A program made the position numbers and the translations under genes. The notes beneath the pieces are model-generated. The model was not told where the DNA came from. It saw nothing but the letters and a program-made list of their open reading frames with translations, and did not search any database. Below are positions 24,742-26,394 of a DNA stretch of 32,000 nt, piece by piece; the stretch's first letter is position 1, and the number at the start of each line of letters is the position of its first letter. This DNA comes from Promethearchaeum syntrophicum. GTDB taxonomy: Archaea > Asgardarchaeota > Lokiarchaeia > Sigyniarchaeales > Promethearchaeaceae. Where the stretch lies: NCBI RefSeq assembly GCF_008000775.2, contig NZ_CP042905.2, forward strand, positions 3,570,001 to 3,602,000, given 5' to 3'.

Positions 24742-26394
24742 TTATAAAAAATATAGTCCAACTGATGAGAAAATAATACTTATTATCAATAAAATAACCT
24801 GAATTTTATTAAAGTATGGATATTCATCTCTTATTTCTGTTGGACTTGTGCTAAATGTATATCCACTAAAAGACATTGTTGAGAAGAAAGCTAACCAGAA
24901 ATAAAGAAAAATATTCAGTAACATAAAAAGAATTGAATTGTGGAGAATGTATGTTATGATACTCAATACAATAATATTAATTACTCCAATGGTTGCTCCT
25001 TTCACCATAAATTTCCGCGTAAAATTGAAAATCGGGTAGGGGATACAAATCAATATATTTGTAATGGCAATATATAACCAAAATTCTCCGATAAACCACA
25101 TTTTATCAAACATTTGAAAGAAAATCAACCCTAAACATAACAAAAGTGTTGGTTTTAAGAAAATTTTTCTATAAGAAAATGTTAAATGTGTGATTCCTGC
25201 TAGTATTCTATGAAATAGTGAAAAATTAATTTTTTTCATAGATTTTGGTTTTACTATATACTTTTTTTCAAGATATTCCGGGATATCCTTTGCCCAAATT
25301 GGACCGTAATAAAGTTTAAAAGGGAAATATGGCACATCAGTTATCAGTTGAGGAATCGCAATTCCCCCAGCAGATAATTGTGGGAGGATAATTTTACGCT
25401 GTTGTGTTTTTTCTTCAATATTTGTTGCTTTAATAGCTTCAATTAATTGTTTATTACCAAAGTTATCTCCGCGCGCACCACACCATACATTAATCCCATT
25501 ACTATCAACACATAATACCCAAGCATCAATTTTTTGAATTTTTTTCATAAAGCGAATATAGGTATAATCATAATTAGACGTTACTAATATTGGAGATTTT
25601 GAATTTGGGTTTCCAGATTGATATATTCCTGGTTCAATAGGTACAGGATCCACTTGACCAGTTAAAATACATCGCATGGAGCGAAATATTGCACTTAATC
25701 CAGAAAAAGATTTTTTAGGAGGAGTATAATAACCAGGACCCGAATTTTTCTTTAATTCTTCCTTAACTATTTCCAATACTTTAATGGAACCTTGTTTCCA
25801 ATTTTCTTCATTAATTATTTTATATCCAATAGGACCAAGATATTTTGAAAACCATTTGAGAGGAAGTGTTTTTCCACTTTTTTTTCCAGTTTTTTTTTTA
25901 TAAAACCAGCGTTCTAAGATAAATTTGATTTTTGAAAAGCCTGATGGCACAAATTCTGCAGCTAAATAAAGTCTTCCATTTGGTTTTAATAATTTCCATG
26001 CCTCTCGTAAAAAAATCTGCTGTTCTAAGGGTCGAAGTTCTGAAAGCATGAACGTGCTAACAATCACATCAAATTGTTCTGGTTTGGTGAAATCATCTAT
26101 TATTGAACCTTTAAGAAAGGAAAGTGAATTTTTTATTTCAGATGAGATATTGTTATTTGCCACACGAACCATTTTAGGATTTTTATCAATTCCAAGAACA
26201 AATGCACCTTTCTGAGCTAATTTTCTAGATAATTGACCTGGACCACAACCAACATCCATAACTTTCTCATCTGAGTGAATCCTTTCCACAATCCAATCTT
26301 GCACTTGTAAATTTATTCCTTTCGTGAGTTTAGTAAAATTTACATCATAAATAGTTGGGGTTTCTTCCAACTTTCGCATATATACAACTGCCAA
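24742..26394 (-). CDS. Fusion protein: N-terminal class I SAM-dependent methyltransferase + HgcA-like corrinoid-binding domain + C-terminal multi-TM domain
   Basis: aa ~40-150 are VMDVGCGPGQLSRKLAQKGAFVLGIDKNPKMV...FDVIVSTFMLSEL...LLKPNGRLYL, covering SAM motifs I-III. aa ~250-380 are PGIYQSGNPNSKSPILVTSNYDYTY...IDAWVLCVDSNGINVWCGARGDNFG...RKIILPQLSAGGIA...YGPIWAKDIPEYL. As far as I recall the HgcA sequence, this is colinear with its cytosolic domain (PGLY..G.P..SPVLVTANY....DAWLLV.DT.GINVWCAAGKG.F...R.L.LPQL.A.GV....GPV.A.DLP.FL), including the cobalt-ligand Cys (codon 25480-25482). aa ~390-550 form about 5 TM helices, as in HgcA. The start is TTG at 26394 or ATG at 26379. Confidence 0.75.
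   Translation of the reverse strand: MAVVYMRKLEETPTIYDVNFTKLTKGINLQVQDWIVERIHSDEKVMDVGCGPGQLSRKLAQKGAFVLGIDKNPKMVRVANNNISSEIKNSLSFLKGSIIDDFTKPEQFDVIVSTFMLSELRPLEQQIFLREAWKLLKPNGRLYLAAEFVPSGFSKIKFILERWFYKKKTGKKSGKTLPLKWFSKYLGPIGYKIINEENWKQGSIKVLEIVKEELKKNSGPGYYTPPKKSFSGLSAIFRSMRCILTGQVDPVPIEPGIYQSGNPNSKSPILVTSNYDYTYIRFMKKIQKIDAWVLCVDSNGINVWCGARGDNFGNKQLIEAIKATNIEEKTQQRKIILPQLSAGGIAIPQLITDVPYFPFKLYYGPIWAKDIPEYLEKKYIVKPKSMKKINFSLFHRILAGITHLTFSYRKIFLKPTLLLCLGLIFFQMFDKMWFIGEFWLYIAITNILICIPYPIFNFTRKFMVKGATIGVINIIVLSIITYILHNSILFMLLNIFLYFWLAFFSTMSFSGYTFSTSPTEIRDEYPYFNKIQVILLIISIIFSSVGLYFL

Follow-up and report, generated by a model that had tools for sequence, protein, structure and literature searches.

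A CpaM-type methyltransferase fused to an HgcA-like corrinoid membrane protein in arsenic-resistance gene neighborhoods of Asgard archaea

The closest described relatives of the gene analyzed here come from two systems. HgcA and HgcB (Parks et al. 2013; P. mercurii ND132) comprise a membrane protein, with a corrinoid-binding domain derived from the corrinoid iron-sulfur protein (CFeSP), a cap-helix Cys as cobalt ligand and a C-terminus of about five transmembrane (TM) helices, and, as its partner, a di-cluster ferredoxin whose C-terminus carries cysteines. In the purified canonical pair, Co(I) takes its methyl group directly from S-adenosylmethionine (SAM; dissociation constant ~33 µM) and not from methyl-tetrahydrofolate (PMC11588087, 2024). 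Canonical hgcAB also has a published association with acr3, arsC, arsM, and arsR, looser than the one reported below (PMC7438021), and is under the control of an ArsR that responds to As(III) and S-adenosylhomocysteine (SAH) (bioRxiv 10.1101/2022.10.17.512643). In the second system, NCBIfam already pairs the class I methyltransferase CpaM (corrinoid protein-associated methyltransferase) with HgcAB-like fusion proteins (e.g., the Pyrococcus furiosus Q8U2U9 type), and the association of methyltransferase and corrinoid protein is therefore already recognized. Two further points of comparison are the CFeSP large subunit of the Wood-Ljungdahl pathway (AcsC/CdhE) and the arsenic methyltransferase ArsM/AS3MT. 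Here we analyzed a stretch of 32,000 nucleotides (nt) of Promethearchaeum syntrophicum (assembly GCF_008000775.2, contig NZ_CP042905.2, positions 3,570,001 to 3,602,000), referred to here as the window, in which a single gene joins a CpaM-like methyltransferase to an HgcA-like corrinoid and membrane protein. The gene and its predicted domains are as follows.

24742..26394, minus strand: fusion gene for a CpaM-like SAM methyltransferase, an HgcA-like corrinoid-binding domain, and a TM domain (open reading frame of 550 amino acids; Pfam and NCBIfam domain matches)
25750..26394, minus strand, residues 1-215: predicted class I (Rossmann) SAM methyltransferase domain, a diverged CpaM (CpaM profile, motif I, fold matches)
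25690..25749, minus strand, residues 216-235: inter-domain linker with a PGYY.P motif (residue conservation)
25240..25689, minus strand, residues 236-385: CFeSP/HgcA-type corrinoid-binding domain (PF03599, CFeSP alignments, HgcA and HgcAB-like hidden Markov models)
25468..25491, minus strand: cap helix N302-V-W-C305-G-A-R-G309, with C305 as the predicted lower axial cobalt ligand
24742..25227, minus strand, residues ~390-550 plus stop: membrane domain of about five TM helices (AlphaFold2 helices, hydropathy windows)

The initial annotation of this DNA, made from the sequence alone, had described a single polypeptide fusing a SAM methyltransferase to an HgcA-like corrinoid membrane protein, and this description held up: all of the sequence blocks that it listed are present in the translation, and hidden Markov models recognize both halves. 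In the methyltransferase half the blocks are VMDVGCGPGQ (residues 45-54), GIDKN (68-72), FDVIVSTFMLSEL (108-120), and LKPNGRLYL (135-143), while the C-terminal half contains PGIY (255-258), SPILVTSNY (267-275), DAWVL (290-294), GINVWC (300-305), ILPQLSAGG (336-344), and GPIWAKDIP (364-372), followed by a hydrophobic C-terminus. Pfam assigns Methyltransf_25/31/11 to residues 39-145 (E ~1e-17) and CdhD PF03599 to residues 241-342 (E 5e-14), the latter being the sole Pfam match in the C-terminal half. Among NCBIfam models, CpaM (NF043040) scores 143.8 bits over residues 3-208 (cut-off 180), HgcAB_like (NF043039) 176.8 bits over residues 248-502 (profile positions 11-265 of 350; cut-off 285), and HgcA (NF040863) 169.9 bits over residues 253-542 (cut-off 275). 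The model of the CFeSP gamma or large subunit AcsC/CdhE (NF003195) reaches only 69.2 bits (cut-off 306), and its match is confined to the corrinoid domain (profile positions 311-445).

The AlphaFold2 model of the whole chain is confident (mean predicted local distance difference test, pLDDT, 86.4; predicted template modeling score, pTM, 0.83) and consists of a Rossmann methyltransferase, an alpha/beta corrinoid domain, and about five to six long C-terminal helices (residues 393-425, 433-450, 462-485, 488-513, and 518-549). These helices, all between residues 393 and 549, agree with the earlier count of about five TM helices after the corrinoid domain. The pLDDT falls to ~70 in the linker (residues 216-235), while the pTM refers to the model as a whole. 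In a Foldseek search of the PDB, the top match of the model was the HgcA model 9a0b_A (311 aligned columns), and the others were SAH-bound class I methyltransferases.

The longest open reading frame starts with TTG at 26394 (MAVVYM...). The database protein P0001 (Ca. Prometheoarchaeum syntrophicum) is 100% identical to the fusion and 545 amino acids long, as expected for a start at M6. Ahead of M6 (window 26380-26394), the residues 'AVVY' are kept in homologs and align to 'VFMKILE' of stand-alone CpaM; because of this conservation and alignment, we favor the longer, 550-amino-acid form as the probable protein. The GenBank/nr name of P0001, 'Acetyl-CoA decarbonylase/synthase complex subunit gamma', is misleading.

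Asgard archaea, closed genomes among them, encode the same architecture in more than 120 protein clusters. All 120 of the 120 homologs among the matches listed contain both sets of domains (51-84% identity, ~545-587 amino acids); they come from Promethearchaeota (Loki) and from metagenome-assembled genomes (MAGs) labeled Hod-, Hermod-, and Odin-, and from the closed 6.27-Mb chromosome of Lokiarchaeum ossiferum. A metagenome scan added 80 independent contigs with full-length matches, while a contig scan queried with this one protein yielded three Promethearchaeum MAGs and, beyond these, only two spurious methyltransferase matches. These data rule out a chimeric assembly, a missed stop, or a frameshift, for which no sign was found in more than 100 homologs, and show that the fusion is a genuine single polypeptide. 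In an alignment of 72 sequences of ~52-84% identity, G49, G51, and G53 of motif I, S113, F115, and E119 are invariant in the methyltransferase half, and at least 90% of the sequences retain D70. In the corrinoid half D297 and G300-I-N-V-W-C305, and in the linker P220, G221, Y222, Y223, and P225, are invariant or nearly so. Because SAM motif I, D70, and the cap-helix residues are conserved to this degree, both halves are intact and under selection; the earlier description of a complete class I SAM domain is supported by the same intact motifs.

We next consider the family placement of the C-terminal half, whose residues ~250-550 had been described as colinear with HgcA. The corrinoid domain aligns to structures of the CFeSP gamma subunit (2h9a, 2ycl, and 4c1n, also 4djd), and in a phmmer comparison with the PDB the query residues 'NVWC' align to 'SVLT' of the Carboxydothermus hydrogenoformans CFeSP, placing C305 at the Thr position. 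Thus, the domain is homologous to the Rossmann-like corrinoid domain of AcsC/CdhE (PF03599), but the window protein lacks the N-terminal [4Fe-4S] domain and the TIM barrel of that subunit, has a TM domain instead, and carries Cys rather than Thr under the corrin. Its predicted methyl source also differs, being SAM and not methyl-tetrahydrofolate via the methyltransferase MeTr. C305 is invariant in 16/16 sequences of the Asgard clade, 33/33 HgcAB-like proteins, and 94/94 canonical HgcA representatives. The protein therefore shares with HgcA the PF03599 domain, the cap-helix Cys at the CFeSP Thr position (Cys93 of ND132), and a multi-helix C-terminal TM domain. The cap helix itself differs: NVWCGARG in the window and NVWCAARG as the Asgard clade consensus, compared to NVWCAAGK in canonical HgcA, and neither Asgard form is among the six cap-helix motifs accepted for true HgcA in the Hg-MATE list (PMC10087281). 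R308-G309 is present in 16/16 Asgard-clade sequences where canonical HgcA has G-K, and the clade has additional cysteines at positions 242 (14/16) and 295 (12/16), which in canonical HgcA are mostly occupied by Val or some other residue than Cys. These clade-specific residues would be compatible with an altered acceptor site.

We searched 1.84 billion representatives with the last 315 amino acids of the protein and obtained 963 relatives, of which the best 150 fall into three groups: canonical HgcA (~310-480 amino acids, NVWC(A/S)(A/G)GK), HgcAB-like proteins with a fused ferredoxin (~355-385 amino acids), and proteins with an N-terminal methyltransferase domain (530-590 amino acids). We built a neighbor-joining tree of 143 sequences and 302 columns, with bootstraps on a subset of 78 sequences (all non-canonical plus 30 canonical); since this is a distance method, not maximum likelihood, and has no outgroup, its deep branching is to be read cautiously. 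Canonical HgcA splits from all methyltransferase- or FeS-associated forms in 200/200 bootstraps of the subset. The Asgard 'NVWCAAR' clade, including the window protein, is monophyletic with 99% bootstrap, while its placement relative to the HgcAB-like group is not fixed by neighbor joining. A bona fide HgcA is ruled out by the scores below the cut-off of 275 bits, the cap helix NVWCGARG, and the position outside the canonical clade (bootstrap 100%), and membership of HgcAB-like is not supported either, since bona fide members score 381-393 bits on NF043039. Nor does the 550-amino-acid protein contain a fused ferredoxin, as it has no CxxCxxCxxxC motif and a gene of its own, 26 nt downstream, encodes the ferredoxin. 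The earlier placement therefore stood in part: the C-terminal half is HgcA-like and not CFeSP (169.9-176.8 bits compared to 69, with the cap-helix Cys aligned), but it is not HgcA in the strict sense.

For the N-terminal domain, CpaM was the best family match, covering profile positions 2-213 of 216. Although the score is below the cut-off of this hypothetical equivalog, the class I SAM motifs are intact, the domain is associated with an HgcA-family protein, here fused in cis, and it shares 33% identity (E 9e-32) with a bona fide CpaM of the stand-alone type. Our data indicate that the domain is a diverged CpaM. An ArsM-like direct arsenite methylase is ruled out, since the ArsM model (NF008823) gives 41.2 bits against a cut-off of 263 and the Cys triad is absent, the sole conserved Cys of the domain being C50 in motif I. 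ArsM/AS3MT shares with the fusion the class I SAM methyltransferase fold, the setting in ars operons with ArsR and ACR3 and, if the hypothesis set out below is right, a methylated arsenic product. However, ArsM moves the methyl group from SAM directly to As(III) held by the Cys triad, while the fusion system would pass it through a corrinoid and would add a ferredoxin and a membrane anchor.

The same modules recur in other arrangements. In three unrelated loci, labeled Eubacterium cellulosolvens (L089), Dehalococcoidales (L090), and Bathyarchaeia (L091), a stand-alone cpaM (219 amino acids) precedes a co-directional HgcAB-like fusion gene by 5-8 nt, and these stand-alone proteins score 287-300 bits on the CpaM model. 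A protein of 591 amino acids (P0258) is a CpaM-HgcA-HgcB triple fusion (CpaM 265.8 bits, HgcAB_like 381 bits), and CpaM::HgcA fusions with a separate downstream ferredoxin occur in Anaerolineae (P0255, P0279) and in a Heimdall-labeled sequence (P0141). Throughout, gene order equals domain order: methyltransferase, corrinoid/TM, ferredoxin. Because stand-alone adjacency, the triple fusion, and the other fusion permutations share this one order, Rosetta-stone evidence indicates that the three modules probably work together functionally. Compared to the CpaM and HgcAB-like pair, the window locus thus has the same components in the same order (class I methyltransferase, Cys-capped corrinoid and TM domains, 2x[4Fe-4S] ferredoxin), and its two halves find their best family matches in CpaM and HgcAB_like, respectively. 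It differs in the fusion point, with CpaM::HgcA and a free HgcB in place of a free CpaM and HgcA::HgcB, in both halves scoring below the cut-offs, in the Asgard clade with its NVWCAARG signature and the extra Cys242 and Cys295, and in its placement in ArsR/ACR3 operons, which the examined CpaM/HgcAB-like loci do not share. Canonical HgcA, in turn, has no fused or adjacent CpaM.

Two observations concern these comparison loci. L089 (4001-5080; [Eubacterium] cellulosolvens, GCA_975961365) and L091 (4001-5077; Bathyarchaeia, GCA_036480815) have the same gene order around cpaM and the HgcAB-like gene, and their HgcAB-like proteins are near-identical tree neighbors; one of the two taxon labels is probably wrong. 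In the Heimdall-labeled MAG (L094, 3732-4952), a distant CpaM::HgcA fusion directly follows phosphoglycerate kinase and precedes an Hdr/succinate-dehydrogenase-like Fe-S/CCG cluster, with no ars genes.

The partner of the fusion in the window is the following gene.

24401..24715, minus strand: HgcB-like 2x[4Fe-4S] ferredoxin of 104 amino acids, starting 26 nt after the fusion gene (Fer4 families; GCGC motif and C-terminal Cys-Cys)

HgcB (NF040864) is the best model for this ferredoxin, at 56.6 bits and below the cut-off of 99, and the gene has the HgcB layout of two cluster motifs and a C-terminal Cys pair, encoded beside the hgcA-like gene. The initial annotation had pointed to a downstream ferredoxin, and we found a homolog of it directly downstream of the fusion in 68/70 loci with enough sequence. 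All 70 of the 70 partner ferredoxins have two CxxCxxCxxxC motifs; 55 of the 70 have CC within the last 12 residues, most others finish with a C-x-C pair, and most of the listed tails contain a GCGCLW motif. Around the ferredoxin gene, a YjbQ/UPF0047 gene (window 23988-24404, plus strand) is convergent with it and overlaps its 3' end by 4 nt; conservation of this neighbor is limited to the three Promethearchaeum MAGs. In the majority of Asgard loci from outside Promethearchaeum (~35 loci; in L007 at 8023-8412, 8450-8803, and 9037-9996), the ferredoxin is followed by three conserved genes that are absent from the window: a 129-amino-acid protein with N-terminal SCC...SCC Cys pairs, a 117-amino-acid protein, and a YdjM-family membrane protein. 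The 129- and 117-amino-acid proteins have no Pfam or NCBIfam match.

Upstream of the fusion, the window contains arsenic-resistance genes.

26442..27530, minus strand: ACR3 arsenite efflux permease, 47 nt upstream of the fusion on the same strand (TIGR00832 acr3, 295.3 bits, above the cut-off of 282.8)
27649..28062, plus strand: ArsR/SmtB metalloregulator with a CVCELE metal(loid)-binding motif, divergent (HTH_5 and NF033788 matches)
27531..27648, no strand: divergent arsR/acr3 intergenic region with the inverted repeat CATATAAAAAATTT-N14-AAAAATTTTATATG at 27585-27626, a candidate operator

Here, acr3, the fusion, and the hgcB-like gene form a co-directional run with short gaps, divergent from arsR. 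The repeat is weak and not convincing as an ArsR operator and may be due to chance, because the intergenic DNA is extremely AT-rich. We compared the window to 86 related loci, counting for each gene the loci that are informative for it. ACR3 is upstream of the fusion in 40/65 loci and is its immediate co-directional neighbor in 34 of these 40; ArsR is upstream in 30/48. Clustering at 70% identity leaves 13/18 clusters with a co-directional ACR3 gene no more than 250 nt away and 11/16 with an upstream ArsR, and the arsenic context persists at 47-55% protein identity. The same arrangement is found in L. ossiferum, in a Hodarchaeota MAG, and, with arsM and DUF166 inserted, in the MAG GCA_019058445; DUF166 is present in several operons. 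One operon (L007) contains a bona fide arsM (347 bits, cut-off 263), and in another locus (L029) an arsM homolog lies downstream (60% identical by tblastn). The C-V-C-E-L-E motif, which corresponds to the ELCVCDL As(III) site of R773 ArsR, is kept in 38/38 ArsR homologs. Asgard acr3 and arsM have been cataloged before, with no mention of the fusion gene (PMC10060404).

Loci without ACR3 have ArsR and an FMN reductase in some cases and DGC-domain proteins in others. In L085 (3803-11994), as in L087, DGC-domain proteins (PF08859, four-Cys) stand on either side of the fusion-hgcB pair, with an ABC-2 transporter before them and glyceraldehyde-3-phosphate dehydrogenase (GAPDH) and an MFS (GPH-type) transporter after them, reminiscent of the gapdh-arsJ arsenate-resistance pair. 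A second recurrent context (L013, L014, L023, and L093) consists of a divergent ArsR, the fusion, HgcB-like, an optional EamA gene, and a flavin reductase, and continues with a class I methyltransferase of ~205 amino acids, a flavin reductase, and a cupin. In the window, an ICMT/PEMT-family integral-membrane methyltransferase of 219 amino acids (28099-28758, plus strand) begins 36 nt after arsR and may be co-transcribed with it. On the other side, a Na+/Ca2+ exchanger family protein (22784-23854, minus strand) has an uninterrupted Glu/Asp run of ~30 residues (EDEDEDEDEDEDEDDDDDDDDDDDDYD) in its central loop.

We hypothesize that the fusion is the central enzyme of an ArsR-controlled arsenic-resistance operon, relaying methyl groups from SAM via a Co(I)-corrinoid to a metalloid, namely arsenite. 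The CpaM-type class I N-terminal domain would bind SAM, and the methyl group would pass to the Co(I) of the corrinoid in the HgcA-like domain, for which C305 would provide 'Cys-on' ligation. The separate HgcB-like di-cluster ferredoxin would supply low-potential electrons for the reduction of Co(II/III) to Co(I), and its thiol-rich tail (GCGC and the terminal Cys pair) would capture the thiophilic acceptor and present it to CH3-Co(III). The membrane domain would site the reaction at the membrane, beside ACR3; methylated species would exit the cell, ACR3 would export leftover As(III), and ArsR would gate expression. The relay from SAM to cobalt alone is likely. It is the natural reading of the fusion, as proposed in the initial annotation together with an acceptor, and the fused CpaM domain fits the known SAM donor of the HgcAB family. 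For the acceptor, synteny points to arsenite, or to a similar soft metalloid, for example Sb(III), as most likely. We put forward the full relay in its operon tentatively, as a reading that falls a little short of an even chance. Architecture, conservation, module linkage with its fusion permutations, and operon context are observations from the loci compared here, while the donor chemistry is imported from HgcAB.

Several points weigh against a relay to arsenite. Canonical HgcAB uses SAM without any CpaM domain, and for this reason the catalysis of cobalt methylation by the CpaM domain of the fusion is something that we infer. L007 and L029 also encode a normal ArsM, beside which another arsenite methylase would seem superfluous, unless each has its own target species or its own redox regime. 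Approximately 38% of informative loci have no ACR3 upstream. Moreover, no ars neighbors were found at the distant CpaM-HgcA fusions (Heimdall L094, Anaerolineae L095) or at the CpaM and HgcAB-like loci (L089-L091); since these lack ars genes, the arsenic link appears to belong to the clade of the window gene and not to the superfamily, and the generic acceptor of the superfamily therefore need not be arsenic. These last two points also speak for a generic relay from SAM via the corrinoid to another acceptor, or for other corrinoid chemistry, with the ars neighbors explained by ArsR-family co-regulation or hitch-hiking. The acceptor might then be a small organic molecule, a membrane lipid or cofactor, or a substrate of halomethane-type chemistry; halomethane dehalogenation has been proposed as an HgcAB activity in a 2026 preprint (10.64898/2026.04.26.720869), ArsR-family regulators may sense SAH (bioRxiv 10.1101/2022.10.17.512643), and the second context type brings in flavin reductases, another class I methyltransferase, and a cupin. 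We regard a non-metalloid acceptor as unlikely given the same-strand ACR3 in 13 of the 18 clusters, the CVC metal(loid) site kept in every ArsR homolog, the conserved Cys pairs in the ferredoxin tail, and the co-occurrence of ArsM, DGC-domain, and FMN_red genes.

If the protein were instead a functional mercury methylase, a strict HgcAB, the Hg methylators would come to include Promethearchaeum and further Asgard archaea, and Asgardarchaeota are indeed listed as putative methylators in marine-sediment surveys (PMC12484752). The invariant cap-helix Cys, the TM domain, and the ferredoxin with its C-terminal Cys pair are what such an enzyme would have, and the HgcA score of 169.9 bits exceeds the Hg-MATE 'moderate' threshold of 100 bits, although that threshold applies to a different model. 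However, both HgcA and HgcB scores are below their cut-offs, the cap helices are outside the six validated motifs, the protein is outside the canonical clade, its nearest non-canonical relatives do not methylate Hg, and the context is ars, not mer or any other Hg-related set. We therefore consider mercury methylation quite unlikely.

A further alternative is action on methylated arsenicals, either anaerobic demethylation, in which the methyl group of mono- or dimethylated arsenicals (MAs/DMAs) would pass to Co(I), or conversion of ArsM products to volatile trimethylarsine. In its favor, the known detoxifiers of MAs(III), ArsH and ArsI, need O2, and ArsM is co-encoded in some operons. Anaerobic arsenic demethylation, of unresolved mechanism, has been linked to corrinoid methyltransferases (bioRxiv 10.64898/2026.08.27.747368). 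On the other hand, a SAM-binding class I domain is a donor module that offers no disposal route for an arsenic-derived methyl group, the window contains no ArsP-type methylarsenite permease, and the reading is pure inference; we consider it very unlikely. Finally, an ordinary CFeSP gamma subunit of the acetyl-CoA pathway or an assembly or frameshift artefact, for which only the nr name of P0001 and PF03599 as the one C-terminal Pfam match could be cited, has next to no probability, given 69 bits in the corrinoid domain alone compared to 170-177 bits for HgcA-type models, the missing N-terminal Fe-S and TIM-barrel parts, the TM domain and cap-helix Cys in their place, and the >120 clusters and 80 independent contigs.

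Returning to the relay to arsenite, the ArsR/ACR3 context is its strongest functional clue, and the initial annotation had left it unused. That annotation had also presented the fusion as bypassing the folate link of canonical HgcA, a contrast that is outdated now that SAM is the methyl source of HgcAB, and had supposed the architecture to be undescribed. The latter is correct only in part. The partnership of CpaM and HgcAB-like is curated (NF043040, NF043039), and the Prokaryotic Genome Annotation Pipeline (PGAP) labels some Hodarchaeales (Asgard) fusions 'CpaM'. Nevertheless, our literature search found no relevant paper describing CpaM or the fusion, Podar 2015 does not mention a methyltransferase beside fused hgcAB, and a search for Asgard, hgcA, and methyltransferase together returned Lin et al. 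2023 only. That study placed Asgard sequences in the fused-HgcAB subtree after deletion of the first 327 alignment columns, a trimming that may have removed the methyltransferase domain. Thus, the SAM donor, the CpaM/HgcAB-like pairing, and the presence of Asgard sequences in HgcA trees are already known, while what is new in the searchable literature is that this fusion topology forms a distinct Asgard clade, with signature residues and a systematic placement in ArsR/ACR3 operons.

These findings bear on how the genes are named and counted. Current names are uninformative or wrong ('acetyl-CoA decarbonylase/synthase gamma subunit', 'UbiE', 'methyltransferase domain-containing protein'), and metagenomic hgcA surveys that accept model scores of at least 60-100 bits will probably count these abundant Asgard genes as Hg methylators, probably wrongly. 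They also bear on the native substrate of the hgcAB family and the reason why microbes carry hgcAB, for which an arsenic link had been suspected only from scattered synteny and one ArsR study. The Asgard clade contributes an HgcA-family protein that is hard-wired to a SAM loader, retains its ferredoxin, and is located in ArsR/ACR3 operons in most lineages of the clade. Transfer from SAM via cobalt to As(III) thereby becomes a directly testable question, and two cultured organisms carry the gene, Ca. Prometheoarchaeum syntrophicum MK-D1 and L. ossiferum. It is possible, though doubtful, that Asgard archaea have a second, ArsM-independent form of metalloid methylation, in which an HgcA-family protein serves as a membrane-bound, SAM-fueled, cobalamin- and ferredoxin-dependent arsenite/antimonite methyltransferase. 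If this is true, metalloid detoxification would be a native function of the HgcAB superfamily, and mercury methylation would be a side branch.

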